DNA of 64,000 nucleotides. Origin: a virus. A model generated the notes under the pieces. It searched no databases. It saw only the letters and a list, made by a program, of their open reading frames with translations, and had not been told where the DNA came from. A program made the translations under genes and the position numbers. Positions within the stretch are counted from its first letter, which is position 1, and every line of letters starts with the position of its first letter. The stretch is from IMG/VR virus record IMGVR_UViG_3300045988_120604; one strand, written 5' to 3'. Below are positions 127-59,899 of this stretch, piece by piece.

Positions 127-3030
127 GTGTGGTATTCATTTTGTTCGCCTGATATTTATTTCAACAAGCCCGAACTTCCAAATGAAGTATGTATAGACGG
201 GTTTCAAAGAGGAATGTCTGTAGGCAGTTTTATACCTGTCGAAGATCATCCAAAATGGACTATCTTAGGTCCTGCCGCTTATACGATGGCTGCGTCACTT
301 GCCGCAGTTGAATCAAGTGCCACAATAGCCGCTATGATAGCAGAAGAGCTTCAGGTAAGGGCTCAGTCTGGATACATAGGAGGGTCGGCTGGTCTTACCG
401 GAGGAGGATTCCTAACGAATTTAAGTGTGGCCATGCTGTTTTCTTCAATGGTGTCAACCATTAGTCAAACTCTTGCTAAGGGCCCGATATTGTACGGTAA
501 GTACCGTTATGATTGGCTTAATACGTTTATAAACAATGGACCAAGACGTAATCATGCATGGTATTATACTTCTGTAGGATTATATAATTCAATGATAGGT
601 ATAACGGACCAGGATAAGTATGAACGAAATTTTGCTCGTGGTTTATCTTCTGTTAAGTACATGAAGTCCGGTGTATATCCTATGATGGATGCCAGTATGT
701 CATCTAAATGGGGAACCGGTAAAAACGATAATGAGGGACGATTCTTATTTGTTAATAATATAGATCGTGAATCTTCGTTATTTTTATCATTTGGTGATCC
801 AGGTGAAAAGGGAGATGGTAAATCGAAATATTTATTGGAATATCCGAACTATGTCTACAACTACGACAGTAGCCGTATAGATGATTCGGTTATTGCTGGA
901 AGAGATGTTGTAGCAGGAAGAACATTCGAGCAATCCAAATCAGTTTCATACATCTGTTCTCCGTATATGAGGCTTATGCGATATAGGCCGGATCAATATG
1001 GTCAAATAGAAGATATAAAATGGATTTCCATAGGTGGATGTGGATTTTTCACTAATGAAAAGAAACTGATGTTCGGTGGTGATACGGTGATAACCAGATT
1101 TTCATTAAAGAGAAAATTTCCTGTTTTTTATAATAGTGCTTTTGGTATTGGAGATATGATACCTTTCCCTTACATGGATTATAGAAATGTAGGATATCCA
1201 AGATATTTTGTTAATTATGATACAGGGGAAGATGCGCTTGAAACCACGGATAACGAACGTTTCAATAGTTGGACATCGTCTAATAAAGGAAGATATGCTT
1301 TTTACCCAAATAGGAAGAGCTTGTATGAATTGAACGGTGACACCTCCGGTAAGTATGTAGATGGCAGATTTTATACATGGTTCTATGGTATTCCTCAGTT
1401 CCTTGTAGAATCTGAAATAAATTGTAATTTCAGATTAGAGGGCCCTCAGCCTCATGAATTATTCTATCCAAAAGTAGGAGATTTTGTTTGGTGGACACAA
1501 GAAAAGAACGTATCTATCCATAGGGACAATGATTACAAGATAAGTCCTATCTATTCATCAAGAATGACATTGACACCTAATGTATTGCCGGCAACATACG
1601 AACGTCGTTTTTATGATTGTGCTTACCAGCGACCTAATGGTGTTATATGGAGTAGGGCTGACGTATCTGAAAACAGTCAAACAGATCCGTGGCTAACGTA
1701 CAAGCCTATGGACTATCATGAGTTTCCAACCAGCAACGGGAAGCTTATTCACATGAAGCGTATTGAATCCGATCAGATTCTTGTCAGGTTCGAGGATCAG
1801 GTTTCACTCCATAACGCCATAGACGTAATCAAGGAGCGCACCTCCCCGGGGCAGGCTGAGATGGGCACCGGCGGTCTGTTCGCGTCCCGTCCTCTGGAGT
1901 ACAACACGACCGACCTCGGTTATTCTGGAACCCAGAGCACTGAAATAATTAGTTCAGAATTTGGTCACTTCTGGGCAGATACTAAAAGAGCACAGGTGTT
2001 TATGACCGACCCGAACGGACGTAATCTTAAGGAACTTAGTGTAGGTGTCAGACATTGGCTTAAGCGTCATCTTCCGTTTAAGATTCTTAGATACGGAATA
2101 ACTAATATCTTAACCGGTACGGAGATGACAGAAGAAGATACGGATAATAAATTTATTGGTCTTGGTCTGTCTCTTGGATGGGATAACAGGTATAAGAGGG
2201 TGTTTATTACTAAAAAAGATTATATACCAGTACAGAATCCGGCATATTATAAATATGATGGTGGTAGGTTTTTGTACAATGATACAGAGATATCATTAAA
2301 GGATGAGCGATATTTCAAGGATGTGTCATTCACTATCGGATATTCTTGTTTGAAGCAAGAATGGATTTCTTATTATTCGTTTTGTCCCGATTATTATATA
2401 GAACAGCAACAATATTTCCAGACAGGAATAAACTTCCCGGCATTAGACGAGGAAGGTGGCTTATGGAGTCATTTGTTGACGAATAAGAGCTTCCAGACAT
2501 TCTACGGAACAACATATCCGTTTATATTAGAAGTGCCGATAAAAGAGAAATATAATGGCTCTACGCTGGCTTCTGTAGAATACGAGCTTGATGCAAGGAA
2601 ATACGTCGATGATGTGAATTACACTCTTGATAGAAAAGTAGGTTTAGATACGATAACTATCTACAACGACACAAACAACTCAGGTGAAATTCATCTTGTT
2701 CCAGAAGAAAAGAATAATTTAGCGCAACGTATATCGTATCCGAAGATCGTAGGCGACCATACCGAGGTTCTGGATACTGAAGTATATAGAAGACATAAGT
2801 TAAACGACTTCTTTAATAGGGTTGACGATGACCGATCTGAAACACCTATCTGGATCAAGGACGATGACGATATAAATAAGTCAGTTAATCCTGATTCTCT
2901 TAATTTTAGACGGTCATGGCTTGATAGGTTGCGTGGTAGTTGGATGCTGATGAGGATAAAGAAAGTAATTAGCAACCGGAAAATTATATTCCAGTGGTTG
3001 ATTTCTGAAGATAAGATTAAGAATAGATAA
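127..3030 (+). CDS. Large virion/structural protein (967 aa). The frame is open back to window position 1, so the true start may lie upstream; GTG at 127 is preceded by aaaggagg.
   Basis: Long uninterrupted ORF. SD-like aaaggagg lies 6-13 nt upstream of GTG 127. Composition is Y/W/N/D-rich and beta-type. No recognisable catalytic motif. Confidence 0.6.
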   Translation: MWYSFCSPDIYFNKPELPNEVCIDGFQRGMSVGSFIPVEDHPKWTILGPAAYTMAASLAAVESSATIAAMIAEELQVRAQSGYIGGSAGLTGGGFLTNLSVAMLFSSMVSTISQTLAKGPILYGKYRYDWLNTFINNGPRRNHAWYYTSVGLYNSMIGITDQDKYERNFARGLSSVKYMKSGVYPMMDASMSSKWGTGKNDNEGRFLFVNNIDRESSLFLSFGDPGEKGDGKSKYLLEYPNYVYNYDSSRIDDSVIAGRDVVAGRTFEQSKSVSYICSPYMRLMRYRPDQYGQIEDIKWISIGGCGFFTNEKKLMFGGDTVITRFSLKRKFPVFYNSAFGIGDMIPFPYMDYRNVGYPRYFVNYDTGEDALETTDNERFNSWTSSNKGRYAFYPNRKSLYELNGDTSGKYVDGRFYTWFYGIPQFLVESEINCNFRLEGPQPHELFYPKVGDFVWWTQEKNVSIHRDNDYKISPIYSSRMTLTPNVLPATYERRFYDCAYQRPNGVIWSRADVSENSQTDPWLTYKPMDYHEFPTSNGKLIHMKRIESDQILVRFEDQVSLHNAIDVIKERTSPGQAEMGTGGLFASRPLEYNTTDLGYSGTQSTEIISSEFGHFWADTKRAQVFMTDPNGRNLKELSVGVRHWLKRHLPFKILRYGITNILTGTEMTEEDTDNKFIGLGLSLGWDNRYKRVFITKKDYIPVQNPAYYKYDGGRFLYNDTEISLKDERYFKDVSFTIGYSCLKQEWISYYSFCPDYYIEQQQYFQTGINFPALDEEGGLWSHLLTNKSFQTFYGTTYPFILEVPIKEKYNGSTLASVEYELDARKYVDDVNYTLDRKVGLDTITIYNDTNNSGEIHLVPEEKNNLAQRISYPKIVGDHTEVLDTEVYRRHKLNDFFNRVDDDRSETPIWIKDDDDINKSVNPDSLNFRRSWLDRLRGSWMLMRIKKVISNRKIIFQWLISEDKIKNR

Positions 3031-3166
3031 ATTACAATATTTAATAAGTTGAAAATAAGTAGTTTTTATTTTGTGATTTAATAATAGTTGAATGTATTTG
3101 TAGCGCCTATCTGTCCGAGATGGATCGATAGGCGCTTATTTATTAACAATAAAATGATGTAAAATT

Positions 3167-3916
3167 ATGAAAAGTAACGTGTTATTGCAATCAGAAAGCA
3201 GAGAATTGTTGGGTAGAAACATCTCTGTTATGTCAAAAGACGGTTTTGTGTGTATAACAGAGGTAATGGAAGCTTTGACTGAAAAGAGGGAAAAACATGG
3301 TTTGGCTCCAAAAAGATTAGATGATTTAATGAGTACAAAAGGATTTCAAGAGAAAATGTATGCTTTAGTTAAGAGACTGAATATAAACAATATATGTACT
3401 GCGGTAAAAATCGCAGTACAAAAAAACGATCTGTGTATTAGCAAGCCATATGATCTTAAAAAATATCATATGGCTTACAGAAAAGGAAAAGGAAAAGATC
3501 AGAAATGGTTTGTGGATCCTTATTTCTTTGTAATGGTTGCATTGGAATTAGATCCAGATATATATGCGAGTGTGGTTATATGGCTTACTAATGGCCTTAT
3601 CAAGAATAGAAATATGGCAGGTGATGCTTATATAAGAACATGTAAATCTGTAGGATCACTTGTAAAAAATAAAAGCGAATTATCCGATAAGATAAAAAGG
3701 ATAGCAAAGGCTATTAATTTTATTGTATTCAATAAACATGAGGATGGGATAAGAAATATGGCAACGGAAGAACAACTTAATGATATAACAGAATTAGAAA
3801 TAGCCATAAGTTCAATAATAGACGGAGGATTTATAGCAAATTACAATGATCTTATATCCTATTTAGGTAAAGAGTGGAAAAAGAAATGGGGTAATCCGAT
3901 TATGGCTCTAAATTGA
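3167..3916 (+). CDS. KilA-N (APSES-type) DNA-binding domain protein
   Basis: N-terminal ~100 aa looks KilA-N-like. The C-terminal half is paralogous to ORF 41160..41927 (shared ...MVALELDP.IYA.VV.WLT..LI.NR...GD.Y / NFIVFNKHE..IRN.AT.EQL). Confidence 0.5.
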   Translation: MKSNVLLQSESRELLGRNISVMSKDGFVCITEVMEALTEKREKHGLAPKRLDDLMSTKGFQEKMYALVKRLNINNICTAVKIAVQKNDLCISKPYDLKKYHMAYRKGKGKDQKWFVDPYFFVMVALELDPDIYASVVIWLTNGLIKNRNMAGDAYIRTCKSVGSLVKNKSELSDKIKRIAKAINFIVFNKHEDGIRNMATEEQLNDITELEIAISSIIDGGFIANYNDLISYLGKEWKKKWGNPIMALN

Positions 3917-4029
3917 CATGCTTTTTCTTACGCAAGAAGGTCTTCGTAAGAACTTAAATAAAATAGCCGAAGGACGAGTAGCATCATTCTTCGGCTATTT
4001 TATTTACCTTTGTTGAAAAACAGATTGTT

Positions 4030-4443
4030 ATGAAACAGGTATCGTATAAAAATGACATATATCCTTACAATATAAGGGTATTGCTTGGAGCAGATGAAGA
4101 GTATATAGTTAAGACGTTCGCCAACCTGGAAGTAGAAGATCAGAGCTGGGAGGGATGGACTGATGATTATGGTGGCAGAACTATTTTCGTAGGAAACCGA
4201 ACCAATCACAGGAAAGAAATATGTTTCTTATTTCATTCACTGTCTGATATGGATGTGAGAACCATAGGGCACGAATGCCTGCATGGTCTTTCTATTTATT
4301 GTAAGTATCTTAATATGGATTACAGTTTTGAAGTAGGAGGAGATGAGCATGCCGCCTGCCTGATGGGATGGTTAGTTGATAAGGTTTGTGATGCTTACCA
4401 TAAGTTCAAGAAGGAGGAAGAGAAAGATGACAAAGAAGAGTAA
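4030..4443 (+). CDS. Small putative Zn-metallopeptidase-like protein (HExxH)
   Basis: Motif HECLHG (HExxH) with a downstream GGDEH; acidic C-terminal tail. Its 3' end overlaps the next gene. Confidence 0.4.
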   Translation: MKQVSYKNDIYPYNIRVLLGADEEYIVKTFANLEVEDQSWEGWTDDYGGRTIFVGNRTNHRKEICFLFHSLSDMDVRTIGHECLHGLSIYCKYLNMDYSFEVGGDEHAACLMGWLVDKVCDAYHKFKKEEEKDDKEE

Positions 4444-7399
4444 GTCAGATTGGAAACCTTCAGAAAATATTCTTAAATATTTGAAGTCGTGGGAAAAATT
4501 TAGGTCAAAACCGTATGACGATGGTGAAGGAAATATTACTGTCGGATACGGATTTAACTTGCCTCACCTTCTTAAAAAATACAAGAAGGGTATAACGGAA
4601 GAGCAGGCGGACAAAGAATTTGCAGGCGTAGTAAATACGTTCGTTCCTGAGTTTAGGAAACTTACTCCAAACTTTGATAGTTTAAATAATAATCAGCGTG
4701 ATGCTCTTTTCAGTTTATACTACAATGCCGGTGCTGATACTTATATGAAAAGTCCTATGCTATTCAAATATCTTAAAGAAGGAGATTTTGATAAGGCGGT
4801 TAAGGAAATAAATCATGACGAATGGAAAGACGACATGGAAGGCCAGAAGAAGCGCCGGGCCTTCGAACGCCGTGTGTTCTCTACGCCGACAGACCAGCCT
4901 TGGACGGTGGATGACGACAGTAACTACGTCCTGGTTGAAAACAAGCCCGTAGAGGACAAATCTGTAGGAGAAGGTACTGATGATCCAAAATACGAAGACG
5001 CTCGCCATGTGGAAGCTAAATATGGTTATACAGGTTATGTGGGTAGAGGATATGACGGAAATAAGGTCAGGGTATCTGATTCGAATATGAAATCAGTTGG
5101 CATATCCAATAACGCTGATCCTGATAAGTGGTATGAATCCGTTAATCCAATATTAGACACTGATCCTATTAGTTTGATTGCCGATTTTATTCCTACTGTA
5201 AAACGAATGTTGGATCCTAATAGGGAGCGATCAGGGGAAGATACAGCCACAGATTTTGAAGAAAAAATGTGGAAGGCTTACACTGACGGAGATATAAGTA
5301 GGCTGCCGGCAAGCAAGTATCGTTTTGATGATGATGATGATAATGCTCAGTACGTGGGATTGCCTCAAGAACAAGCCATTTTGATACAATCTTTATTAGA
5401 TAAAGAATATATAAACAACATGCTTGACGAGGCATATAAGGATGCTGATGAAAAAAGTAAACGAAAAATAAGAGATTATAAGAAGGTCCTTGATAAACTA
5501 AATAAAAATATATTTGAAAATCCAGGAAAATGGATTTTAGTAAATGAAGGTGTAAGTCCATTTAGAGAAGAAGTATATGGTGACAATTTTGAAAAAGTAA
5601 ACGAAGCTTCCGGATTAGGTGCGTTGAAGAATTTCAGTGTAAGATGGGATCCTGATGCCGGTATGTTAGATGTGAAGGATGATTATGATTTTAGTCGAAA
5701 GAAGATAGCGGAAGACATCATACCGGAAAGGGATGTCCCTCTTAGAATAAGGGAACGTATCAAATACGATCCTAAGAAAGGTAGTGTGCTTCGAAATAAT
5801 GACAAGGCTTTACCTAAAAGGTTTGTAAGGAAATACGAAGAAGGTGGAGAAGCTAAGTATTGGTGGAGCAATCCAGACAAGAGAGATGAGGTTATAAAAA
5901 GACAAGATGACAATGGGGAGTGGCAAGAAAAGAGGAGGAGATTACTTGAACAAGCTCATTCAGATCTTGAAAAAGGTGAAATTGATGAGGACGAATTTAG
6001 AAGAATAGCCGGGTTTTCAAATAGTGAAATAGGAAATTTGATAATATCCAAAGATGGAAACGGGGAAGAAATAGGAGCTATTATAAATAATCTTTTAGAT
6101 TCCATAGATATAGATAAGGTAAAAGAGGGAATTGATGATGCTAAAGAAGAGAGGGAGAACAAGAGCAGGGAGGATGCTTACCCTTATAAGTTAATGGCCG
6201 AATCTTTGCTTACACTTGCGGACGTTGCTTCTTCTACACCAGGAATGCTCAGATTATATAACAAAATGGGATTAAGGTTGATGCCGATTCTTAAGACAAT
6301 AGCAGAAAGTAGCAAAATACAAACCATAGCTGGATTGTCTAATGTGGGTGTTGACGGAAGCCAGATTGCCTTAGATCCAGAAGGAGATAATACTTTTAAC
6401 TACGCCGGCATACTTGGTGGAGCCGCCGAGGCAATAGGAGGAACGAATGTGATAAGGAATATGTCTTTTATGGGAAGATATGGGAATAGGGTAGATGATG
6501 TACTTGATATTGCAAATCCTATTATATCAACATTAGGTGTAGTAGATGATGTAAGTAAGATGAAAGAAGGTGGAGTAATTGGCAAGCAGCGTGAAGCATA
6601 TGAATACTTTACTAATAAGAGAGGTATGTCCAAGATACAGGCGCTTGCTATCATAGGTAATCTCATGGCTGAATCCGGTCTTAAAGATGACATATATGGA
6701 GACAATAGAACATCATACGGCATACAGCAATGGCATAATGAACGCATGGATAAGTTATTCAAGCATGCCAAAAAGAAAGGTCATTCTACACCCACATTCA
6801 AAGACCAACTTGAGTTCTTGGCTGACGAATACGAAGGGAAAACCGGATATTCTAATTTCTTATACACAAGAAAAGGAAAAGAAGGACCAGGGTATTACAA
6901 CTACAGCCGGCAGGATTTTATGAACGCCGATAACCTTAAAGATGCTGTAGTAGCTTGGAACCAAGGAGCAGGACGTCCTCATAAAAGCGTGATACGAAAC
7001 GATGACCGTTATAACTATGCTATGGAGGTTGCTAAAAATCTTGGTTTGGATATTGAAGAAAATCCCGTATCTTCGTATGGTCAAATGGGATTCGGAGATG
7101 ATGCTGAAATAGCAGCATCAGTAACACTTCCAGAGGTAGAAGTGGCAGCCGCCCTCCCTAACCCGGAAGCCCCGTCCCAGGAGGAACAGTCCGAGGAAGA
7201 GAGATTCCGTACATGGACTGAAACGTATGGTAAGGACATCATAAATCATTTACTGACGTTAGACGGGAAAAAGGACAGTGATTACAGCATGATGTATAAA
7301 CAGCATGAAAAAGAAAGCGAAGAGGATAAGAAAATGGCTTTGATTAATGCCGTGCTTCCCAATATACAGCTTCGCATTAAAGGCGTCACTGATAATTAG
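4427..7399 (+). CDS. Virion-associated peptidoglycan hydrolase: N-terminal GH24 lysozyme-like domain, acidic/coiled middle, C-terminal phage-tail-lysozyme-like domain
   Basis: N-terminal WEKFRSKPYDDGEGNITVGYGFNL aligns with T4 lysozyme [24 protein letters not shown] (Glu/Asp/Thr positions conserved). C-terminal IQALAIIGNLMAESGL...SYGIQQW matches the phage tail lysozyme signature. The likely start is ATG 4427, preceded by aaggagg (the ORF track starts at 4376). Confidence 0.65.
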   Translation: MTKKSKSDWKPSENILKYLKSWEKFRSKPYDDGEGNITVGYGFNLPHLLKKYKKGITEEQADKEFAGVVNTFVPEFRKLTPNFDSLNNNQRDALFSLYYNAGADTYMKSPMLFKYLKEGDFDKAVKEINHDEWKDDMEGQKKRRAFERRVFSTPTDQPWTVDDDSNYVLVENKPVEDKSVGEGTDDPKYEDARHVEAKYGYTGYVGRGYDGNKVRVSDSNMKSVGISNNADPDKWYESVNPILDTDPISLIADFIPTVKRMLDPNRERSGEDTATDFEEKMWKAYTDGDISRLPASKYRFDDDDDNAQYVGLPQEQAILIQSLLDKEYINNMLDEAYKDADEKSKRKIRDYKKVLDKLNKNIFENPGKWILVNEGVSPFREEVYGDNFEKVNEASGLGALKNFSVRWDPDAGMLDVKDDYDFSRKKIAEDIIPERDVPLRIRERIKYDPKKGSVLRNNDKALPKRFVRKYEEGGEAKYWWSNPDKRDEVIKRQDDNGEWQEKRRRLLEQAHSDLEKGEIDEDEFRRIAGFSNSEIGNLIISKDGNGEEIGAIINNLLDSIDIDKVKEGIDDAKEERENKSREDAYPYKLMAESLLTLADVASSTPGMLRLYNKMGLRLMPILKTIAESSKIQTIAGLSNVGVDGSQIALDPEGDNTFNYAGILGGAAEAIGGTNVIRNMSFMGRYGNRVDDVLDIANPIISTLGVVDDVSKMKEGGVIGKQREAYEYFTNKRGMSKIQALAIIGNLMAESGLKDDIYGDNRTSYGIQQWHNERMDKLFKHAKKKGHSTPTFKDQLEFLADEYEGKTGYSNFLYTRKGKEGPGYYNYSRQDFMNADNLKDAVVAWNQGAGRPHKSVIRNDDRYNYAMEVAKNLGLDIEENPVSSYGQMGFGDDAEIAASVTLPEVEVAAALPNPEAPSQEEQSEEERFRTWTETYGKDIINHLLTLDGKKDSDYSMMYKQHEKESEEDKKMALINAVLPNIQLRIKGVTDN

Positions 7400-7432
7400 A
7401 ACAATTATTTTATTTCTCATATTAATAAAGCG

Positions 7433-7506
7433 AAGCCGGATTTGAGACTCGTTATGCGGATACCAAAGGTTGAAGAACGATATCAAGATAATCCGGCTTT
7501 TTTATA
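7433..7506 (+). terminator. Long hairpin (stems aagccggat/atccggctt, 49-nt loop) followed by a TTTTTT run; terminator or small structured RNA
   Basis: 9-bp perfect stem arms at 7433-7441 and 7491-7499, then ttttttat, immediately downstream of the stop at 7399. Confidence 0.4.
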
Positions 7507-7535
7507 CTTCGTAACGATTACAATTTGCAATGATA

Positions 7536-7879
7536 CGAGCTAATGATCCGAACCTACGCTTGGGCTAACGCTATCCTGCCTCACAACACACGACGGCCTC
7601 TCCTACCCGCCTGCCTGCTTATCTCGTGGCTACTCGTGAAACTGTTATCGCTTCTCTCAACCTCACTCCCTTCGGTCGATTCGGTTTCAATCGCTTTATA
7701 TAGATATCGAGCTAATGATCCGAACCTACGCTTGGGCTAGCGCTGTCCTGCCTCACAACACACGACGGCCTCTCCTACCCGCCTGCCTGCTTATCTCGTG
7801 GCTACTCGTGAAACTGTTATCGCTTCTCTCAACCTCACTCCCTTCGGTCGATTCGGTTTCAATCGCTTTATATAGATAT
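7536..7879. repeat. Perfect tandem direct repeat, 2 copies x 172 bp (2 mismatches, both A->G), relatively GC/pyrimidine-rich, non-coding
   Basis: Unit cgagctaatgatccgaacctacgcttgggcta(a/g)cgct(a/g)tcctgcctcacaacacacgacggcctctcctacccgcctgcctgcttatctcgtggctactcgtgaaactgttatcgcttctctcaacctcactcccttcggtcgattcggtttcaatcgctttatatagatat occupies 7536-7707 and again 7708-7879. Confidence 0.95.
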
Positions 7880-8026
7880 TGAAAATATAAAAATATATTT
7901 TCGTTCTTTCGTATATCTCCCTCCGGTCGATATACTCAATCACTTTTAATATCAATCAGGCTAAAAAGTAAATAGTCGTAATGATAAATTATTAATTGTT
8001 TCGAAATCTCACTCCCTTCGGTCGAT
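7662..8026. repeat. Iteron-like motif ctc(a/c)ctcc(c)ttcggtcgat in four copies (7662, 7834, ~7916 degenerate, 8008) set in AT-rich DNA
   Basis: Direct reading. Copies 3 and 4 lie outside the 172-bp units, in the AT-rich stretch 7880-8160. Confidence 0.8.
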
Positions 8027-8247
8027 TCGATTCCGAAACTATAAAAGTATATTTAAAACAGTATTTATATTTAAAAAATATGAATAACATATAAATATAT
8101 AAAATGAATACGACTGAATGGAGTATGAATGGAATATATAATAGGGGAAATTCATTTATCCTATTATACCTTTAGATAACTTGTCCCACCACTGATGTTC
8201 AGTGACTTACGGGTACGGTACGAATCGGTTACGTTTACCATGCCTAT

Positions 8248-9384
8248 ATGAAACAAAAATCCCTGTATCCTATTTTTCTCAAACCGGATACAGGGTCGTG
8301 CAATTTCTTTACCGTCAGTATGAAAACTTTTCGTATATTTGCACAAAAAAAACAACCAATGGCAAAGATAGTAGAAATGACATATTGCGACAAGCTTCAC
8401 AAATCACTCCTTAAAAAGGAGGCGGTTTCACCCCTTGAGGTTATCTATAATAATCACAATCAGTTAGGCTATAATGTAGTACGCAGACCAGCCGGTCAAT
8501 GTTTAGGCAATTTAAAGTATTTTAATCTATTTTATAACGGGAGATTTGATAGGTGGTACAAAGTTGATGAGAAACAAAGGGTTGGTAAATACTTTGTCAT
8601 CACCGACTACTGGAAGGATCGTGTGCGTTGCTTCATGGTCTGGAACTACGGATTTGGTCGTTATTTCCCGTACAATGATTTTGTAGAGGCTATGGTTTAT
8701 GACTACCGTCGTTTTGGTCGTCTTTGTAATCCTCGTAGCAAGAAAGTTCAAGAAGCTGAAGAAAAGTGTGTTAGGTTTTATGTTAGGTCTCAGATAGACT
8801 TGATGAGAAAGGGTGGATATCAGTCTTTTAGGGCTCAATTCGCAGAAGAGCATCCTGAATATTTCATTGGAAAAGAACGTACCACATTTAGATGTCTTAA
8901 TGGAGCTCTTAGTAGAAATGAGAAGATAGCCGCTTGCCATGCTCATAAAAGAGATCTCAGAACCAACATATTGGATAGCTTTGCTGATAGGATTGCCAAA
9001 CACCCAAGCACGGCATGGTCCTGGTTTTCACATGTAACAGATAAACAAGGTAAAAATCGAATGTGCTTCTCGGAGAAAGCTGTTGCATTTTTAAATAGAA
9101 GGCTCAAGAATAACGGTCTCAAGGAATTGTCTGATTCTTATCTCTATAGATCATTTAGGATTAGGTTATTAAAGCGATTTGATGGGAAATACAATTCTGT
9201 TCGTTCGTTCCTCAATGCGGTGGTGATGTCTGTCTTATCATCAGATGTTATTGCTAAGGCTATGAAGAAAATCCAGAGCCCGGTTGTGTTATCTATATAC
9301 AGGAAAGTTCTCAAGTTGTACAAGAAGAAAGAAAAGGCTGTCAACGCTCCTATAACCAAAGAGGCTCCACCTCTATCATCTTGA
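8248..9384 (+). CDS. Hypothetical basic protein (378 aa; alternative starts at 8320 or 8359), sited immediately downstream of the repeat/AT-rich region
   Basis: Long ORF, basic, Cys/His scattered. No RT, HNH or LAGLIDADG motif. A Rep-like role is speculative. Confidence 0.5.
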   Translation: MKQKSLYPIFLKPDTGSCNFFTVSMKTFRIFAQKKQPMAKIVEMTYCDKLHKSLLKKEAVSPLEVIYNNHNQLGYNVVRRPAGQCLGNLKYFNLFYNGRFDRWYKVDEKQRVGKYFVITDYWKDRVRCFMVWNYGFGRYFPYNDFVEAMVYDYRRFGRLCNPRSKKVQEAEEKCVRFYVRSQIDLMRKGGYQSFRAQFAEEHPEYFIGKERTTFRCLNGALSRNEKIAACHAHKRDLRTNILDSFADRIAKHPSTAWSWFSHVTDKQGKNRMCFSEKAVAFLNRRLKNNGLKELSDSYLYRSFRIRLLKRFDGKYNSVRSFLNAVVMSVLSSDVIAKAMKKIQSPVVLSIYRKVLKLYKKKEKAVNAPITKEAPPLSS

Positions 9385-15319: not shown

Positions 15320-18300
15320 ATGGAAAATAAGGAACAGACATTGGTAGAGAAATCAGGTTTCTTATCATCTACTGGATTAAGAGGGTATAATGCCGGAGTT
15401 CCTACGCGATATGAAGAAGAATCTTCTCTTATTGAGGGAGCAAAAAGAGAGATGGAGAGGATGAAAGTAGGTTCATATACTCCCCCGGTATCAGCCATAA
15501 ATCCTGATGATGATTCAGAAAAAGGGTCTGATATTAGCGGAATAGATACTTCTTTTGATGTAGACACATCTTTTTCTGGACTAAAATCGGCTCTGAATGG
15601 TGGAGATGATCCAAGAAAGAAGAAAGAGGAGTCTTATAATAAGTTAAATTCCATGATAAAATCTATTCAAGATAAATCAAGGAATACTTATTCTGGTAAA
15701 CGAACGTCTTATGGTGAGGTTATAGCTGGTGATCAACAGTCATCTGCTGTTGATTTTGGTGTATTTGGTAAAGGAAGAACTATTAAGTTAGATGAAGCAT
15801 ATGACTTTTTATCCGATGGGAACATCGGTCTTGCAAAGTTTAAAAGTTATATGCCAGGAAGGGATAATGAAGATTATTACGGAAGAAGGCAAACTACTTG
15901 GGATAAGGCTGTTAATGGTATGGGGAAATTTGTCACAAAAACAGCATTATATGGTGTATCAGGAGTAGTAGGTATTATCCCGGCTGCGTATAATCTTATA
16001 AAGACTGGTACGTTATCTTCTGCATTTGACAATGATTTTATACGGACCATAAATGATATAGATGAAAGAATAAACCACTCTCTTCCTCATTATTATACAA
16101 GAGAAGAGCGTGATATGGGATTTTTGCAGAGTCTTGGAACTGCAAATTTTATTTTTAATGATGTTATTGGAAATGGTCTATCGTTTATGGCAGGAGCTCT
16201 TCTGTCTGTCTACTTTACAGGTGGGTTGGGCGTGTCAAGTCTTGGAGCTATTGGCGCTAAAGTAGGGATGAGAGTGGCCGGGAAGATGGCGGCGTCTAAG
16301 ATTGCGGCAAGTGCTGTAAAATCAGCTTTTGGAGCGTATAGAGCAGGAGCGATGTACGGCAGGGCTATAGGTAATATGGCCAAGGTAGGAGTAAATACGT
16401 TCGTGGGCGCCGGCTGGGAGTCTGCCGTGGAGGCTCAGTCCTTCATGAAAGACTCTGAAAGTAAATACAAGGAATATTTTAAAAATATGTATGGTCGGAA
16501 TCCTAATCAGTCTGAGACGGCTGAATTTAAGAGTTCTATTTCCGATACGGCAAATAGCATATTTTTAGCTAATATGGGTATAGTTGGATTATCCAATTAT
16601 CTTCTTCTGGGAAAATATCTTGGAGTAGACACTGGTTTTGCTTCTAAATACATACCTGGATTAAAGGGTGTATCAAACACATATAGGGAATCAAAGAGTT
16701 TTGTAGATCGCTATTTGTTTGGATTAGGGACTAAGAAGGTAGCGGGTGATGCTGGAAGATTACAGACGATAAAAGCAAATTTATTCCAGAAATCCTTAGC
16801 TACTGTTTGGAATGTATCTAAAAGACCCATATCTGAAGGTGTATGGGAGGAAGGCATGCAAGGTGTTGCTCAGCGCATGGGGGAAGATTTTATTAGATCA
16901 AGATATGATAAGACGTATCTTGATGCTACGTCTTCTATAGTTGATTCTTTTTCTAAGGCCATAGCTGAACAATTTACAACCAAAGAAGGATTGAAAGAGA
17001 TTGGCATAGGAGCCCTGATTGGTGGTTTATTTGGAGCCAGAAATGGTGCTTTTGGTTTATATGAAAGGAGAAATAAAGAGCGTACTATTAATACTGATGT
17101 TGAGGAATTTAATAGTAATAATGCTTTTACTTCTCAATCTGTAAAAGACTCTATGCGAAATTTAGCCGAATTTAATGCTCAAATGAATGATCCTGAATCA
17201 GATTATTATTCTAAATTTGAATTATCTGACAGAATGGGAATGTTAGAGGATACGGCTAACAATTTCAGGTCAATGGTTAAAAGCCTTGACGAAAGTGAGT
17301 TGGCTTCTGAAATGAAAGTAGATGAAGAAACTGTTAAAAAATACAAGGAAGATATTATAAAAGATTTTGATAAGAAGTTAGCCAATTATAAAAAAGCTTC
17401 TTCTTTTGCTGAGGTTATTACTGCTGAGACTTCATCTGATCTTTATCGATCTAATGTTGCTAATGCTGTGTTTAAGGGGTTGGATGCAGAGGATATGGCA
17501 ATGGAAGTATCAAATGATATTGCTGATTATGTAAATGACAATAATTTGTTTGATGATATAAATACGTTTTATTCATTATCAAGTCAAGCTTTTGATACAG
17601 CTAATCAGTTAAGGGAATTGCGTAATGAGATCAATGATCTGAATGCTGAAATAGAAAGGTTGGCTACAACTCCAAGAAGAGTAGAGGATGGCAATGATAT
17701 CGAAGCAGAGGCTATAAAACAAAAAACTATTAAATACGATAATCTTAATAAGGAATATAGAAGGTTGTCAGAAGATCTTCTTAGTAGTTATAAAGAAGTA
17801 TTTTATTCTTTTGATCCTGGAGTATTAGCTTTTGAGTTGTTTAAATCCGAAACAATAACTGCTGAAGATATATTGAAAGCTTATGACTCTGTAGCTTCTT
17901 TAAGTACTTATATTGAGAATAATAAAGGGAAGAAAGAAGCAGAGGATTTAAGAAATATGGTGGTGAAATACCAGCAAGCCATTACCCAATATAAGGTTTT
18001 ACGGTCATTTATGAACTCCATACAGGATAAGAAATTCATGAGACATGATTTTTCTTTATTTTCTAAGTTCTTAAATGATATGGTATCTTCTAATACTAAA
18101 TCTATAGAAAGTGATCGTTTTTACCAGACAGAGGATAATAATATCAGTTTGGATGAAAAAATAGATGAGCTTCTGAATAATGGAGAAATAAATTCAGATG
18201 AAGCATTTACCATGAAAGTATTTGGTCATCTAAACGATGGTATAACTCAGAAGCCGAAAGAAGATATATTGTCTGATTTTGATTATGAGTCGGCAATGGA

Positions 18301-21300
18301 AGATCTTTTGTCTGCACCTATAGAGGTTAAAGAACGTATCGTAGATAAGATATATACAGGTAATCAAGATCTTTTATCTCCAAGGGAGAAGGAGATATAT
18401 GAAAAGTATAAACAGGATATTGATGATTATATATCAAATCTTGGTGATAGTCCGGCTAAGATGATAAAAGATTTATCAGATAAAGTTAAGAGACTTACTG
18501 AACCTCGATCTGTGTATGAGGATAATAATATCATTATTGATATGGCTAAATCAAATTTGGAACCAGATCAAAGGCAGGAACTTGATGATGCTATTTCTTC
18601 GTATGTGGATATAATGAACAGACGGGACAAAGGGGAGAAAGTTGATGAAGATAAGCTTGCTGATTCGGTATTTACCATAGAAGATCTTGGCCAAGTTGGA
18701 AACATCACAGATCTCCTTCCTTATATCGAACAAAACAGGATTATTGATAAAGGTCGTATTTCCGAATCTACGTTAAGTAATTTTGGGGAGGATGATGCTA
18801 ATATAGATTCTCTTGTAAATGAGTTAGACGAATCCGATAATACGCCGGGAGCTAACATAGATAGTGCCCAGAATCCAGAGACGTTGATGGTTAGAAGAAT
18901 ATCCAACGATGGCAACGAAAGGTATGAAATTGCGGGTCTTAGAGCCGATAAATTTATATCTTCTATAAAATCATTGGTTCCTATTCAAATAAGCTCTGAA
19001 ACGAACGCTAATGGTACTAAAAGGTATTCTCTTAACATAGGTGGAGAAACGGCTACTATAATGGAATTACCTTATCATGCGAGATGGTCTATAGATAAAG
19101 AATCGGCTCGTGTTCTTAATCGCTACACAGACGTGTCTATTCAGGACGTGGGTAATTCATATTCTTTGGTTTATAAGCGTCTTGATTCAGATGAGTTGGT
19201 TCCGTACAGAACAGGTGTCGGATTCGGAGAGAATGAAGTAGATAAAATAGATCAGGAAGCATTATCTTCTTTGAAAAAAGGAGATAAGGTGAATCTCGAA
19301 ATAGATGTAAATGATACCTATAATCAGTCTCTTTTTACCGAATACAATAACGCTGTTCAGTCCGGCGATAGAAATAAAATAGAATCTGCTGAAAATAAGC
19401 TGGTATCCAATATGGTTATTAAGGTTATGAGTGGGAACAGATTCGTTTCTGTTGTAAAAGCTGATACAGGAGGCATAGATGGTATAAGTAAGATAAGAAG
19501 AACGGCTTTCAACAAGTGGAAGAAGGACGCCGGCCGGTCGGCTACCGTCGGCGTCGGCACGCATGTTGTTGCCCAGACCCTTCCCGGAAGACCGGTGTTT
19601 AACATGAAGGTGAACGGTCAAGGATATGGCCAGGTAGAAAATCTCCCTATTACCGAAAAAGGTGCTGAAAAAGTATCTGATGTCGGATATGTATTAAATG
19701 GCAAAGTCGTGCTTAAGAACGGATCTAAATACACAGGCTTCCCATTTGCTTATTCTATATTAAATGACAAGGGGAATAATTACAAAAATGTAAGAGTTCC
19801 GGTAGTTGTCATCAAAGGTAAAAACGGTCTTAATTATCTTTTCCCAGTTAGCCTACGTTCTGTAGAATCAGAGGAAGGGCAGAAATGGATGTCTTTTATA
19901 GATATGCTGCTTGAATCTGGTGATTCTGAATTGCTACAGATGGGTCAAGATGATATACAAGATCTTAATGCGTATCTAACCAAGTTAGACCTTGATCCGG
20001 CTTCGTATCAAGTATCGTATTTGAATCCTATTTCAGGGCTTAGAAAAGCTCGTGAGGCTATAGAGAAATTATCTACGGTTCCTGATGTTGTTAAGTGGGT
20101 AGAAGATGGAAGTAGGAGCGTGAAAGACATTGTGACGTCTGAAGTAGAATCTGGAATAGATTTCGAAGGTGAGATGTTTGTTGCTCCTAAGATCAGGATC
20201 CAGTTTGGTAAATCATCTTCCAGGCCTAAATCACTTATAGAGGATGATCTTCCTTTCTCTGATGAGGGTAAGACCGTTACTTCTAAAGAAGATGTGGATG
20301 TTTATGAAGAGGAAATGCCAGAGGAAGGAGCTGTCCGGGGGACTCAGCCGGCGCCACCGGCTCAACCAGCTCCTGCGGCACAAGCTGCGCAGTCTTTACC
20401 TGGCAAGAAGCGTACCTCCAGGAAAAACTTCTCTCTTATGTTAAACGAAATAGAATCTCATATAGAAAAAGAGGGATTGCCGCCTTATGCTAATATTTTT
20501 GATTTTATAGCAAGGAAGATTGTAGGAGGTGACTTGAGGTTTCTTCGTGAGAGAGGTAATCCTAAAAGCCTTAAGGAGGAAATGGGATTAGAACCTAAAG
20601 GAACAGTAGGTGATAAGATATCCACTCCTTCCAGTAAAGGTGGTAAGACTTTAGAAGAATACGTTTCTTGGCTTCGTTCTCAAACAGATCAGGTGGTGGT
20701 GGATTATGTTGGGCCAAGATCTGATGAACAAATTATATCAGAGTTGGAAAACTTTTTGAAATATATTAATTTTGTTCCGAGTAAGGCTTTGAATTATTCT
20801 CTTAGAGTCAATGGCATGGATACCCTAAAAGAATATGGCACAAAAGAGGAAGTAGAAAAAATGGAATCTGATATCAATAGTTTGGTTTCTAAAGTTTTGC
20901 CTACGGTGGATAACCAAACTATAGAAGATGTTTCTACTGCAATAGAATCAAACAACTTGCCTGCCATATGGGAGCCCGTGGAAAGCCTTGATATGACAAA
21001 CGAGGGAAAAATAGAGTTTTTGAATAACGTAGCAGATTTCCTTAGCGGCATACCAGAGTATGATGCTGTTGTGGAGTCTATAGAGTCAGAATCAGATAAT
21101 ATTTTAAATGATGGAAAAGAAGGAAGTGCAGAAGGCGGTGCAGTACGCGCTGAGGAAGATGGCGATAAAAAGGGAGATGGAGAAGGCAAAGGACAATCCA
21201 GAACAAATGTCGAAGTTAAAGGAAATGTCGAATTACCTGGATATACAAAAGGAGAAATAGAAAAAGACGAACCTCGTATATCCGAAGAACCGCTTACTCA

Positions 21301-21727
21301 CATATCAAGGGTAACAACCCCTTATTTTCTGTACGGCGGTGATGAAGCATATACATCTGTTCCGGCTAAGGTAGAACAGATACCTGAGAAGATAATGGGT
21401 CGTAATGGCATTAAATTTGGTATGAGTGTAGTCGAGTTAACCAAATTAGGGTACAAAAAAGCTGGTGGAAACTGGATATATAAATTCTATATGAACTCAG
21501 GTGTGTATGATTTGTATAATATCAGTACCGGTGAAGCGTTTAGGGCAAAACCGGATCTTGGAGTTAAGATAAGTTCCAGTGCATTCATCCGCTCTTTATC
21601 TCAATCTGGTAGAAAAATACAAAATATGATGAGTAATATGAGCCAGGAAGAGATAGATAGGAATAAGAATCTCGTAGAAGGGTCTGATAATTCGGATTCG
21701 ATAAATGAGTTAAATAAGGAGTGTTGA
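15320..21727 (+). CDS. Giant virion protein (2135 aa); candidate ejected/cargo protein
   Basis: N-terminal region has Gly/Ala-rich hydrophobic segments (ALYGVSGVVGIIPAAY, GGLGVSSLGAIGAKVGMRVAGKMAASKIAASAV, IGIGALIGGLFGA). Long coiled-coil middle; Pro/Ala linker (QPAPPAQPAPAAQAAQ). No DxDGD motif found. Confidence 0.7.
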   Translation: MENKEQTLVEKSGFLSSTGLRGYNAGVPTRYEEESSLIEGAKREMERMKVGSYTPPVSAINPDDDSEKGSDISGIDTSFDVDTSFSGLKSALNGGDDPRKKKEESYNKLNSMIKSIQDKSRNTYSGKRTSYGEVIAGDQQSSAVDFGVFGKGRTIKLDEAYDFLSDGNIGLAKFKSYMPGRDNEDYYGRRQTTWDKAVNGMGKFVTKTALYGVSGVVGIIPAAYNLIKTGTLSSAFDNDFIRTINDIDERINHSLPHYYTREERDMGFLQSLGTANFIFNDVIGNGLSFMAGALLSVYFTGGLGVSSLGAIGAKVGMRVAGKMAASKIAASAVKSAFGAYRAGAMYGRAIGNMAKVGVNTFVGAGWESAVEAQSFMKDSESKYKEYFKNMYGRNPNQSETAEFKSSISDTANSIFLANMGIVGLSNYLLLGKYLGVDTGFASKYIPGLKGVSNTYRESKSFVDRYLFGLGTKKVAGDAGRLQTIKANLFQKSLATVWNVSKRPISEGVWEEGMQGVAQRMGEDFIRSRYDKTYLDATSSIVDSFSKAIAEQFTTKEGLKEIGIGALIGGLFGARNGAFGLYERRNKERTINTDVEEFNSNNAFTSQSVKDSMRNLAEFNAQMNDPESDYYSKFELSDRMGMLEDTANNFRSMVKSLDESELASEMKVDEETVKKYKEDIIKDFDKKLANYKKASSFAEVITAETSSDLYRSNVANAVFKGLDAEDMAMEVSNDIADYVNDNNLFDDINTFYSLSSQAFDTANQLRELRNEINDLNAEIERLATTPRRVEDGNDIEAEAIKQKTIKYDNLNKEYRRLSEDLLSSYKEVFYSFDPGVLAFELFKSETITAEDILKAYDSVASLSTYIENNKGKKEAEDLRNMVVKYQQAITQYKVLRSFMNSIQDKKFMRHDFSLFSKFLNDMVSSNTKSIESDRFYQTEDNNISLDEKIDELLNNGEINSDEAFTMKVFGHLNDGITQKPKEDILSDFDYESAMEDLLSAPIEVKERIVDKIYTGNQDLLSPREKEIYEKYKQDIDDYISNLGDSPAKMIKDLSDKVKRLTEPRSVYEDNNIIIDMAKSNLEPDQRQELDDAISSYVDIMNRRDKGEKVDEDKLADSVFTIEDLGQVGNITDLLPYIEQNRIIDKGRISESTLSNFGEDDANIDSLVNELDESDNTPGANIDSAQNPETLMVRRISNDGNERYEIAGLRADKFISSIKSLVPIQISSETNANGTKRYSLNIGGETATIMELPYHARWSIDKESARVLNRYTDVSIQDVGNSYSLVYKRLDSDELVPYRTGVGFGENEVDKIDQEALSSLKKGDKVNLEIDVNDTYNQSLFTEYNNAVQSGDRNKIESAENKLVSNMVIKVMSGNRFVSVVKADTGGIDGISKIRRTAFNKWKKDAGRSATVGVGTHVVAQTLPGRPVFNMKVNGQGYGQVENLPITEKGAEKVSDVGYVLNGKVVLKNGSKYTGFPFAYSILNDKGNNYKNVRVPVVVIKGKNGLNYLFPVSLRSVESEEGQKWMSFIDMLLESGDSELLQMGQDDIQDLNAYLTKLDLDPASYQVSYLNPISGLRKAREAIEKLSTVPDVVKWVEDGSRSVKDIVTSEVESGIDFEGEMFVAPKIRIQFGKSSSRPKSLIEDDLPFSDEGKTVTSKEDVDVYEEEMPEEGAVRGTQPAPPAQPAPAAQAAQSLPGKKRTSRKNFSLMLNEIESHIEKEGLPPYANIFDFIARKIVGGDLRFLRERGNPKSLKEEMGLEPKGTVGDKISTPSSKGGKTLEEYVSWLRSQTDQVVVDYVGPRSDEQIISELENFLKYINFVPSKALNYSLRVNGMDTLKEYGTKEEVEKMESDINSLVSKVLPTVDNQTIEDVSTAIESNNLPAIWEPVESLDMTNEGKIEFLNNVADFLSGIPEYDAVVESIESESDNILNDGKEGSAEGGAVRAEEDGDKKGDGEGKGQSRTNVEVKGNVELPGYTKGEIEKDEPRISEEPLTHISRVTTPYFLYGGDEAYTSVPAKVEQIPEKIMGRNGIKFGMSVVELTKLGYKKAGGNWIYKFYMNSGVYDLYNISTGEAFRAKPDLGVKISSSAFIRSLSQSGRKIQNMMSNMSQEEIDRNKNLVEGSDNSDSINELNKEC

Positions 21728-57990: not shown

Positions 57991-59052
57991 TTAAACCCAT
58001 CCCAGTTGTTTTGCTATTCTCTCCATTTCGTTATATGCTATCCTATGACATCCAGCGGTTAGCAAATCGTTTTCGTACCGATTTAGACTCCACTGGTGAC
58101 CGGTGATGTCCTCCACCAGACCGTGCCGAAACTCGGCGCCCCGGTGCATTGCCGACACAGCCCGCCACAGTTTTCTGGCTTCTGCTATTCCAATCTTTAT
58201 CTGTTTACTTGTCTCAATAATATTTCCTTTTATACGAATCCAGGCGTTAGGTTTTTCACTAGGAATATAGAAAGGTGTATTCAAGAAATTGATTTCTCCT
58301 GACTTCCACTCTTCCAGTTTTTCATCAAAATCCTTGTAACGGGCTTCTTCTTCCTTTCTTAATCTCTCTAATTTTATTCTTTCTCTTTCTTCCTCACCCT
58401 TTCTCCATCTTTCAGATCTTTCTGAATACTTAATCCATGTACCTTCCCCGCAAACTTCATCAACAATCACATTTACGGTCCCTAACACTTTTAATCCTTG
58501 ATGATCTAATAAAATTTGAAAGATGCGTTTTAATTCATGTACGTGCTTACGCTTGATACTATCTCCGCTCTTGGATAATTCATGATTGGTTCCAAGCCAA
58601 TCATTAGCACTCTTTTTAAGGATACTCTTAGCAGTCCCCATGTTAAAGAACTGAATGTAATCCATCATATTCCCAAAAGCGCCCCAAATATCTGTATAAG
58701 ATAATTCTGTTTTAGCTCTTTTGTATTTTTCAATAGACTTCTTAATTGATTCCAGTTTGCTGGCAACAAACCTCATATTACCAGTATCCGATATATTATC
58801 CCCTACACTGAAAACCATTGCCCAAGTTGGTATCGCATTACGAACATAGCATTGATGTTTGCTCGTGGTAGCAGAATAATAATCTTCATTTATCAGGTAT
58901 GCTTTCTTCCCTTGTTTGTTTTTTACTATTCTCCCGACTTCAAAGTGATGCCCATAAGAATAAATACTTGTACCTTCAAAGAAGAAATTGCTCCCTGATG
59001 CTGATTCTCCTTGTTCATGAGCCCACAAGTGAGCGACCATTGAATTGTTCAT
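57991..59052 (-). CDS. Hypothetical protein (353 aa)
   Basis: ORF. Confidence 0.55.
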   Translation of the reverse strand: MNNSMVAHLWAHEQGESASGSNFFFEGTSIYSYGHHFEVGRIVKNKQGKKAYLINEDYYSATTSKHQCYVRNAIPTWAMVFSVGDNISDTGNMRFVASKLESIKKSIEKYKRAKTELSYTDIWGAFGNMMDYIQFFNMGTAKSILKKSANDWLGTNHELSKSGDSIKRKHVHELKRIFQILLDHQGLKVLGTVNVIVDEVCGEGTWIKYSERSERWRKGEEERERIKLERLRKEEEARYKDFDEKLEEWKSGEINFLNTPFYIPSEKPNAWIRIKGNIIETSKQIKIGIAEARKLWRAVSAMHRGAEFRHGLVEDITGHQWSLNRYENDLLTAGCHRIAYNEMERIAKQLGWV

Positions 59053-59064
59053 ATAAATATCTTT

Positions 59065-59472
59065 TTAATTGTTTAACTTACCTTTATCATATGACATTCT
59101 CTTTTCGTATTTTTCAATACGTTCGGTTATCATATCGCAGAAGACTTGCCCCTCTTTTTCGGAACCTCTGAAGTAACCAACCATCTTCAGAATATTTCCG
59201 TCAAATTCATGGACAAACTTGTTATAATAATGTTCACCCATTACCCGTCCGTATTTTTCTACGAACAAATCCTTGTCCAGTGATTCATCCTTAAAGCAAC
59301 GGTTGTAATCCCATCTTACGATACGAAACAATGTTTCAAAATTCAATCTTTCCATATCTTGTATTTTATAGATTTCCTCACATTCTTCATCCGTTAATCC
59401 AGTGTAATCATCATTGATTAACGGACAAGCCCAACAAGATAGCAACCTGTATCTTATTACTTTTATGCTCAT
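59065..59472 (-). CDS. Hypothetical protein (135 aa)
   Basis: ORF. Confidence 0.5.
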   Translation of the reverse strand: MSIKVIRYRLLSCWACPLINDDYTGLTDEECEEIYKIQDMERLNFETLFRIVRWDYNRCFKDESLDKDLFVEKYGRVMGEHYYNKFVHEFDGNILKMVGYFRGSEKEGQVFCDMITERIEKYEKRMSYDKGKLNN

Positions 59473-59861: not shown

Positions 59862-59899
59862 AAGATATGTTATTAAAAAATGATAACTGAATGTATTTC

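Follow-up and report, generated by a model that had tools for sequence, protein, structure and literature searches.

A conserved, structured non-coding region tied to an orphan basic protein gene in epsilon crAss-like phages, and the private tandem repeat within it

Introduction

The subject of this work is a long non-coding gap in the genome of an epsilon crAss-like phage, one of a group of phages abundant in the human gut. The gap lies between the tail-lysozyme gene (Pfam Phage_lysozyme2) and the gene for a basic orphan protein, here termed p341. It was analyzed in a stretch of 64,000 nucleotides from IMG/VR virus record IMGVR_UViG_3300045988_120604 (the window), for which there is a single deposited relative, csAssE-Sib (OR575929, 151 kb). 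A sequence-only reading of the window had drawn attention to a tandem repeat of two 172-bp units within the gap and had proposed that the repeat and the following gene have the layout of a theta-type replication origin and its initiator. The observation is real but its emphasis was misplaced, as the repeat represents a copy-number event private to this genome, in the non-coding half of a conserved cassette.

Two systems provide the background against which such a region is considered. In the crAss-like phage phi14:2, abundant long non-coding RNAs (ncRNAs), whose function is unknown, arise from long intergenic regions, and the virion RNA polymerase (RNAP) transcribes single-stranded DNA (ssDNA), not double-stranded DNA, and no promoter motif is known for it. 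Phage N4 has promoters in the form of extruded ssDNA hairpins.

Results

Limits of the gap and of the cassette

The open reading frame (ORF) for a basic 378-aa protein described beside the gap (8248-9384, +) exists, but its real start is almost certainly the ATG at 8359, because all homologues start there and a conserved -7 box (TATATTTG, 8334-8341) lies just upstream. The product then has 341 residues, the non-coding gap covers 7400-8358 and its conserved part 7506-8358. The genes after p341 form a run of very large structural genes. The comparison comprised some 180 upstream regions that fall into four sequence groups, A (with the window), B (with csAssE-Sib), C and D, in which p341 is 100, about 60, 58 and 43% identical to that of the window, respectively; a search of IMG/VR for further loci like those of group D found none.

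Relative to csAssE-Sib, the flanks are 95-97% identical and identity drops exactly within 7504-9380. The terminator-like hairpin at the left border (Table 1) is 98% identical up to 7503, where identity collapses, and in group C the cassette is preceded by a different upstream gene. Moreover, two diverged paralogues of p341, separated by about 36 kb and each preceded by the complete set of elements, are present in seven phage contigs from metagenomes: OBKV01000038.1 (copies L233/L258), ERZ824978.78 (L234/L267), OJSE01000052.1 (L235/L278), ERZ827490.85 (L237/L293), OROD01000034 (L240/L283), OLFZ01000096 (L241/L302) and ERZ779855.10 (L266/L296). The second-site copy is a clean insertion of about 1.83 kb (non-coding region plus p341) at the junction of the last lysis gene and a structural gene, a locus that holds only about 40 bp in csAssE-Sib, and the insertion flanks are 96.6% and 93.4% identical. 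Sharp borders, the changed context in group C, paired paralogues and the clean second-site insertion together show, at the level of sequence, that the gap and p341 form one discrete and duplicable cassette of about 1.9 kb (window 7506-9384), present once or twice per genome. Like morons and mobile gene cassettes, it is a discrete insertion with its own promoter between conserved genes and displays presence/absence polymorphism and mosaic exchange, but unlike them it includes 0.75-1.1 kb of conserved structured non-coding DNA, and p341 carries no nuclease or recombinase signature.

The left-border hairpin is itself odd, as its 10-bp stem surrounds a 47-nt interior with 98% conservation between phages whose adjoining sequences are unrelated; in one locus (L189) the left half of the hairpin has been replaced. 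The hairpin may have a role beyond termination.

A common order of elements

Groups A to D share one order of elements, namely the upstream terminator, a GC-rich core, two to four small hairpins, an AT- and purine-rich stretch with TGAAT-type direct repeats, block E, an A-run with hairpin F, and a -33/-7 promoter followed by p341 (Table 1). The length of the structured non-coding region across lineages is 0.75-1.1 kb. The core motifs shared across groups include CTGTCCTG, CTCGCCTACCnGCCTGCC and TGGCTAC. The minus strand of 7598-7616, like that of its equivalents in groups B-D, reads GGCAGGCnGGUAGG(C/A)GAG, so that four GG tracts lie 1-2 nt apart in all four groups; a two-tetrad G-quadruplex, with an i-motif on the opposite strand, is a possible structure for these tracts.

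The same internal plan is retained down to 23% p341 identity. At this distance, in the clade of P0027, the homologue follows a 1,095-bp gap between giant genes. This gap contains a terminator, about 330 nt of GC-rich sequence in which related motifs occur, direct repeats of (T)GAGCG in six copies and AT-rich DNA, and an A9 run leads into a hairpin whose stem is new and whose loop is F-like, after which comes a TACCTTTG box.

The DNA at 7880-8160 is AT-rich (GC 0.19-0.31), with an equivalent stretch in groups B-D and in the distant clade. Four copies of TGAAT(A/G) lie here on one strand within 52 bp, the last three 10-11 bp apart, against a background of 80 per 64 kb on both strands. Groups B-D have recognizable relatives of these repeats, and the P0027 clade has one of another sequence. 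With a length of 6-7 nt, compared with about 17-22 bp for typical iterons, the TGAAT repeats are the only iteron-like part of the gap.

Table 1. Elements of the cassette in the window, from left to right.
Feature	Position	Strand	Description
Terminator-like long hairpin of the upstream tail-lysozyme gene	7432-7505	+	Arms 7433-7442/7490-7499, then T-run; left border of cassette
172-bp unit, copy 1	7536-7707	-	GC-rich core and first small hairpin; from repeat search, 99% identity to copy 2
Core motifs in copy 1	7571-7578; 7598-7616; 7626-7633		CTATCCTG; CTCTCCTACCCGCCTGCC; GTGGCTAC; conserved in groups A-D
Small hairpin 1 (TCAC-insertion variant)	7662-7683	-	Apical motif 7667-7677
172-bp unit, copy 2	7708-7879	-	Private duplication; A>G at 7740 and 7745, compared with 7568 and 7573 in copy 1
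Small hairpin 1' (duplicate copy)	7834-7855	-	From covariance model/motif scan
Small hairpin 2 (canonical)	7908-7938	-	UGA, 7-bp stem, G.A/A.G, CC/GG, GGA triloop, stem, GAA; covariance-model match of 48.3 bits
Small hairpin 3 (TCAC variant)	8008-8029	-	From covariance model/motif scan
AT-rich centre	8040-8170	.	Direct TGAAT(A/G) repeats at 8081, 8105, 8115 and 8126 (spacing 24, 10 and 11 bp); AT palindrome 8137-8168
Block E	8181-8250	+	Conserved box TTGTCCCACCACTGATGTTCAG (8181-8202), then hypervariable hairpin, 8211-8220 with 8236-8244
A-run and hairpin F	8251-8295	-	Arms 8261-8270/8286-8295; conserved loop TATTTTTCTCAAACC (8271-8285); minus reading is hairpin, then T-run
-7 box of p341, Bacteroidetes type	8334-8341	+	TATATTTG; conserved in every lineage, usually with -33 TTTG
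p341, basic orphan protein, 341 aa	8359-9384	+	Coding half of cassette; stop overlaps start of next structural gene (9381)

The tandem repeat

Tandem Repeats Finder reports a single array (7532-7879, period 172, 2.0 copies, 98% matches, score 675), and it agrees with the repeat search and the alignment on the two units as they were first described, whose sole differences are A>G at 7568 and 7573. Their GC content of 0.49-0.57 and strongly negative, C-skewed GC skew bear out the description of GC- and pyrimidine-rich units in AT-rich surroundings. The heart of the recurring motif, the 11-nt TCCCTTCGGTC, is exact at 7667, 7839 and 8013 and has one mismatch at 7918 (four matches vs. 0.64 expected, and nowhere else in the 64 kb), so that it does recur twice in AT-rich DNA beyond the units, as had been noticed.

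What does not hold is the interpretation of the unit and its 19-nt motif as iterons, since the unit is single-copy in relatives and the motif is the apex of a hairpin with covarying stems. The unit occurs once in all 22 of the 22 close IMG/VR relatives and likewise in the other group-A contigs seen, and by this comparison the duplication is private to the window genome and hence no conserved property. Its junction shows a microhomology of 3-4 nt (GATA/ATAT) and copy 2 has the G allele at 7573, which is found in 31 of 47 relatives, a combination that fits a real slippage or recombination event; the duplication could alternatively be an assembly chimera of two strains. Independent core duplications with other boundaries (about 115 bp) are present in L247 and L283, an older partial duplication is present in group C, and one to three small hairpins have been lost in L281, L286 and L247, the last of which also lacks the AT-rich centre. 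From these private and independent duplications and the hairpin losses it follows, as far as the compared loci go, that copy number is labile across the gap and that the tandem repeat is not the selected feature. Further variation in copy number and decay is seen in group A, where the apex of the third hairpin is degenerate in L018 and L269 (CTCACTCACTACGTTCGATTCG, in the region equivalent to window 8005-8032) and L018 has an additional duplication of about 110 bp of the third-hairpin region.

Non-coding repeats can mark genome termini, and a chimera of two strains could produce a duplication, which is how a packaging (pac) or direct terminal repeat (DTR) site, or an assembly artefact at a genome terminus, might come to look like this locus. 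The packaging alternative had also been raised from the sequence alone. The start called by PhageTerm in csAssE-Sib is about 78 kb away, however, the terminase genes lie at position 20 kb or so of that genome and relatives carry the unit as a single copy in mid-contig, and this explanation is extremely improbable.

The units are traversed by two plus-strand ORFs, 7543-7740 (65 aa) and 7715-7882 (55 aa), which exist through the duplication alone. Coding potential was rejected, as neither the ATG nor the frame is kept in group B (indels), and the two ORFs are likely spurious and able to mislead gene callers. The A>G differences, and the diversity-generating retroelement (DGR) of the clade, which is annotated about 30 kb away in csAssE-Sib, had prompted consideration of a DGR template repeat. 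This was also rejected, as the 64 kb contain no second copy of the unit elsewhere, and p341 has no YxDD motif and is not a reverse transcriptase. Folding of the whole 172-nt unit is no better than that of shuffled sequences (z of +1.24 for the plus and -0.82 for the minus strand); structure in the gap is local, in hairpins, and not global.

Covariation and strand polarity of the hairpins

The small hairpins, in two to four copies, combine an almost invariant 11-nt apex with stems that show compensatory changes at six of their seven pairs. When read on the minus strand, their apparent loop is itself structured, with tandem G.A/A.G pairs, two C-G pairs and a GNA triloop (GAA, GGA or GUA). In this extended fold 97.9% of cells are paired and seven of nine pairs are compensatory, the inner pair being C-G (17), U.G (3) or U-A (1); one copy in group C has a C-G to G-C flip, and both copies in group D have GACGUGAGGA and a GNRA-type loop. 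The minimum free energy (MFE) structure from ViennaRNA is exactly the extended fold, at -9.8 to -11.8 kcal/mol for the minus vs. -5.0 to -7.9 for the plus strand (for RNA of small hairpin 2, -10.4 vs. -7.9 kcal/mol), and DNA folding parameters give the same strand direction with smaller differences. Across the window and the complete csAssE-Sib genome, matches to the covariance model of the hairpin lie inside the gap only, and regular-expression scans agree. Because of this confinement, the small hairpin is not a general promoter or terminator signal.

In hairpin F, one loop is combined with four unrelated stems. Seven of its ten pairs are double compensatory and 91% of cells pair, the covariation score was reached by none of 500 shuffles, and pairing collapses when the register is slid. 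Across the aligned groups, therefore, the base-paired elements are shown to be under selection and kept by compensatory substitutions.

Single-sided changes in a stem indicate which strand forms the hairpin, as an A.C departure on the plus strand is a G.U pair on the minus strand. Pooled variants of the small hairpins and of hairpin F comprise 12 A.C vs. one G.T on the plus strand, while the control, the terminator of the upstream gene at 7432-7505, shows three G.T vs. no A.C, as expected of its plus sense, and the helices of block E show 12 G.T vs. three A.C, also plus sense. Fisher's exact test, calculated by hand, gives about 0.007 and 0.0002 for these contrasts, values that are indicative only as the counts are per variant. 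Based on these counts, minus-strand folding appears to be preferred by the left arm (core and small hairpins) and by hairpin F, and plus-strand folding by block E, with the AT-rich centre in between. The core also contains a hairpin of conserved position, for which the minus strand gives the lower folding energy in groups A (-9.2 vs. -3.3 kcal/mol) and C (-15.0 vs. -10.2), the two strands are about equal in group B, and the plus strand forms the more stable structure in group D.

Hairpins with this polarity are reminiscent of promoters of the N4 type, that is, template-strand DNA hairpins recognized by a virion-packaged RNAP. What would be the template strand for plus-sense RNA bears three hairpins, each with a 7-bp stem and a purine loop of 3 nt, the crAss-like virion RNAP transcribes ssDNA and no promoter motif is known for it, and N4 sets the precedent of extruded hairpins. 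Strand specificity, short stems, a conserved 3-nt purine loop and occurrence in three copies, here in a phage with an ssDNA-preferring virion RNAP, recall both the N4 promoters and the ssDNA initiation hairpins of phiX174, G4 and the sso of rolling-circle plasmids. The small hairpins are, however, confined to one cassette, do not lie upstream of early genes and, being found nowhere else in 151 kb, would be unable to serve them; they lie in the structural module, are missing from some genomes, and possess the additional tandem G.A and two C-G pairs, and the crAss-like and N4 polymerases are unrelated. Such a role is very unlikely.

Promoters and transcription

In each lineage a strong host-type promoter is found only on the plus strand, for p341. 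On the minus strand, a weaker candidate places its -33 TTTG in the loop of hairpin F and its -7-like GATTTTTG in the adjacent T-run, and it is present in four of the six lineages tested. A scan for sigma-70-type promoters gave matches at chance level. The 10-mer TTTCGTATAT is found both at 7907-7916, in the left flank and arm of small hairpin 2, and at 8329-8338, at the start of the -7 box of p341, and is absent in group B; the double occurrence is possibly a coincidence.

These features could be accommodated by a purely cis-acting control region for the p341-led structural operon, in which an insulator or terminator, operator repeats and a regulated host-type promoter would act with no trans-acting RNA. 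The gap always lies directly upstream of p341 at both genomic sites, the -7/-33 promoter is conserved at its 3' end, hairpin F with its flanking A/T runs resembles a bidirectional terminator, and the C-rich, unstructured plus-strand RNA farther upstream (z = +1.24) could load Rho. Yet at 750-1100 bp the gap would be very long for a phage promoter, every structured element lies upstream of the promoter and so outside the p341 mRNA, and two to four copies of a structured apex with minus polarity are left unexplained. A control region of this kind is regarded as quite unlikely to be the whole account.

The p341 protein and the question of an origin

p341 has an isoelectric point of 9.9 and 66 lysine plus arginine residues. 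It has no match in Pfam, PHROG, NCBIfam, PADLOC or the sequences of the PDB (the last at E<=1), and its family comprises 22 clusters among 1.84 billion representatives. An alignment that includes distant members has no invariant Asp, Glu, His or Cys column, and for this reason the protein is probably non-enzymatic. Structural modelling was poor at first (pLDDT 61) and improved to pLDDT 74.9 when a more diverse alignment was used; fold matches are weak and winged-helix-like and include the DNA-binding domain of ColE2 Rep.

Several roles were considered for p341 and rejected. The CHAHKR motif recalls an HUH or rolling-circle Rep, but the family does not conserve its first His, and the segment is helical. 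A guide-RNA nuclease of the OMEGA type (IscB/IsrB/TnpB) is contradicted by the lack of a PDB sequence match at E<=1 and of invariant catalytic Asp, Glu or His, and a defence or anti-defence role by the negative PADLOC result. A type III toxin-antitoxin system (ToxIN-like) was set aside as the hairpin repeats are spaced, diverged and of minus polarity, and p341 has no PADLOC or Pfam match.

The main rival explanation is that the cassette is a portable auxiliary origin together with its initiator. The AT-rich centre with its phased repeats would be the p341-bound unwinding or iteron region, and the hairpins would be single-strand priming signals on the two lagging-strand templates of a bidirectional bubble. 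Much can be said for it: four TGAAT repeats within 52 bp have 10-11 bp phasing in an AT-rich centre, the direct repeats change with the protein lineage, minus-strand hairpins on the left and plus-strand block E on the right have the geometry expected for lagging-strand templates, a cis-site and a basic non-enzymatic protein are swapped as a unit, and the weak winged-helix matches include ColE2 Rep. CGAAG-type GNA mini-hairpins are, moreover, known in the origins of ssDNA phages. The theta origins (lambda ori/O, RepA-iteron, ColE2 ori/Rep) are alike in the exchange of a cis-element and a basic non-enzymatic protein as a module, in AT-rich phased repeats and in the weak winged-helix hint, but they differ in that the large repeat is here not conserved, the motif is a covarying hairpin and no duplex iteron, no Rep homology was found, a skew signal is absent, and the element belongs to the structural module and may be present twice in a genome. 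Tests of skew, replication-gene position and termini yielded no positive evidence. In csAssE-Sib the cumulative GC skew, a measure that gene orientation confounds here, is lowest at 17 kb and highest at 110 kb, both strand-switch points, and rises monotonically through the locus at 78 kb, and the genes for a DnaB-like helicase, a primase and a 'DNA replication factor' are 35-50 kb away on the other strand. Of the theta-type origin first proposed, the AT-rich element therefore survives, the conserved iterons and the GC-skew signal do not, and for the initiator there are weak winged-helix matches; an origin of the portable kind is considered unlikely.

Known families and neighbouring genes

The cassette fits no known RNA or protein family. 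Rfam 15 gave no match at gathering score in the window and none at E<=10 on 7380-8260, and ARAGORN found no tRNA or transfer-messenger RNA, so that the known RNA families that had been named as a possible explanation of the unit do not provide one. A Ro60/Y-RNA module was rejected, as csAssE-Sib has Ro60 upstream while the window has no Ro60 yet keeps the element, and there is no Rfam Y RNA match. An attP site, prophage or host ncRNA was rejected as well, since 185,579 species genomes contain no relative of p341 and the core pattern is absent from bacterial genomes.

A further cassette swap lies near the gap, at window 3031-3987 vs. L001 2734-5139 (csAssE-Sib 72402-74807), with flanks 94-96% identical, where csAssE-Sib has tRNA-Tyr, tRNA-Lys and a Ro60-related (TROVE) gene and the window a 249-aa amidase-like ORF (3167-3916). 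The structural module of csAssE-Sib also contains two genes for TnpB/IS605-OrfB RNA-guided endonucleases, at 58986-60125 (-) and 64190-65413 (+) (L227). Its genome encodes six tRNAs and a set of RNA-repair and end-processing proteins, namely a polynucleotide kinase/3'-phosphatase, an NrnA-like phosphodiesterase, a CCA-adding/polyA polymerase and Ro60 (2615-4409, 137063-137725 and 73091-74725, in L226, L228 and L001), which suggests a counter-measure to host tRNA cleavage. In the window, ORFs 15320-21727 and 31242-37664 (+) encode about 2,135-2,140 residues each in the same operon direction, and one of them is presumably the virion RNAP reported for the clade.

Discussion

The explanation we favour, tentatively and at somewhat below an even chance, is that the gap encodes a strand-specific structured ncRNA that acts with p341 as its cognate nucleic-acid-binding protein. 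The left arm, consisting of the core and the two to four small hairpins, would be expressed as a minus-sense structured ncRNA, in which the near-identical hairpin apexes (tandem G.A, two C-G pairs, GNA triloop) and the G-rich single-stranded motifs would offer multiple sites for one partner. This partner would most likely be p341, which is co-inherited, basic and possibly of winged-helix type, and the phased direct repeats may be its DNA operators upstream of its own promoter. The right arm, with block E and hairpin F, would provide a short plus-sense element and a terminator or insulator before the host-type promoter of p341. The 2 x 172-bp repeat would be a recent, private duplication of the core and first hairpin, one case of recurrent copy-number change, with no iteron function.

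A number of points weigh against a minus-sense RNA and its protein partner. That the product of the left arm is RNA, and that p341 binds the hairpins or the repeats, we infer from sequence. Since ssDNA, too, can form stable G.T pairs and GNA triloops, the polarity fits ssDNA equally well, and the wobble counts are per variant rather than per independent event. Block E has the opposite polarity, and a single long minus-sense RNA thus leaves part of the region unexplained. The sole minus-strand candidate for a host-type promoter is weak and overlaps hairpin F, which places F outside its own RNA, and in the distant relative P0027 it is on the strand of the gene that the GC-rich block is rich in G. 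Lastly, natural variants have lost one to three hairpins (and in L247 also the AT-rich centre), and either these parts are dispensable or the contigs are defective.

Among known RNAs, the proposed ncRNA would resemble the CsrB/RsmZ sponges and the ToxI/ToxN system in having several copies of a purine-rich hairpin or loop (with AGGGA) beside a protein gene, in variable copy number. It is unlike them in that the hairpins are opposite to the gene strand, diverged repeats stand at a distance from one another instead of forming an identical tandem array, and p341 resembles neither CsrA nor ToxN; CsrA is not known in Bacteroidetes. With the long intergenic ncRNAs of phi14:2 it shares a long non-coding gap in a crAss-like genome, but its genomic position differs and the phi14:2 RNAs are co-directional with neighbouring genes.

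The eye-catching repeat turned out to be secondary, and such regions should be judged by population comparison and not from one genome. What is new is a conserved structured region of 0.75-1.1 kb with strong covariation and no Rfam family, tied to a rare family of orphan proteins. The 31-nt hairpin motif, its covariance model, the candidate binding protein and the defined borders are usable objects for work on ncRNA, replication and regulation in Crassvirales. It is conceivable, although rather doubtful, that they represent a new portable two-component module, in which two to four G.A/GNA-triloop hairpins and a G-rich core are recognized by an orphan winged-helix-like protein and which moves, duplicates and co-evolves as a unit. 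If this is true, the module could be a ribonucleoprotein that is packaged or titrates host factors, or a self-contained mobile origin.

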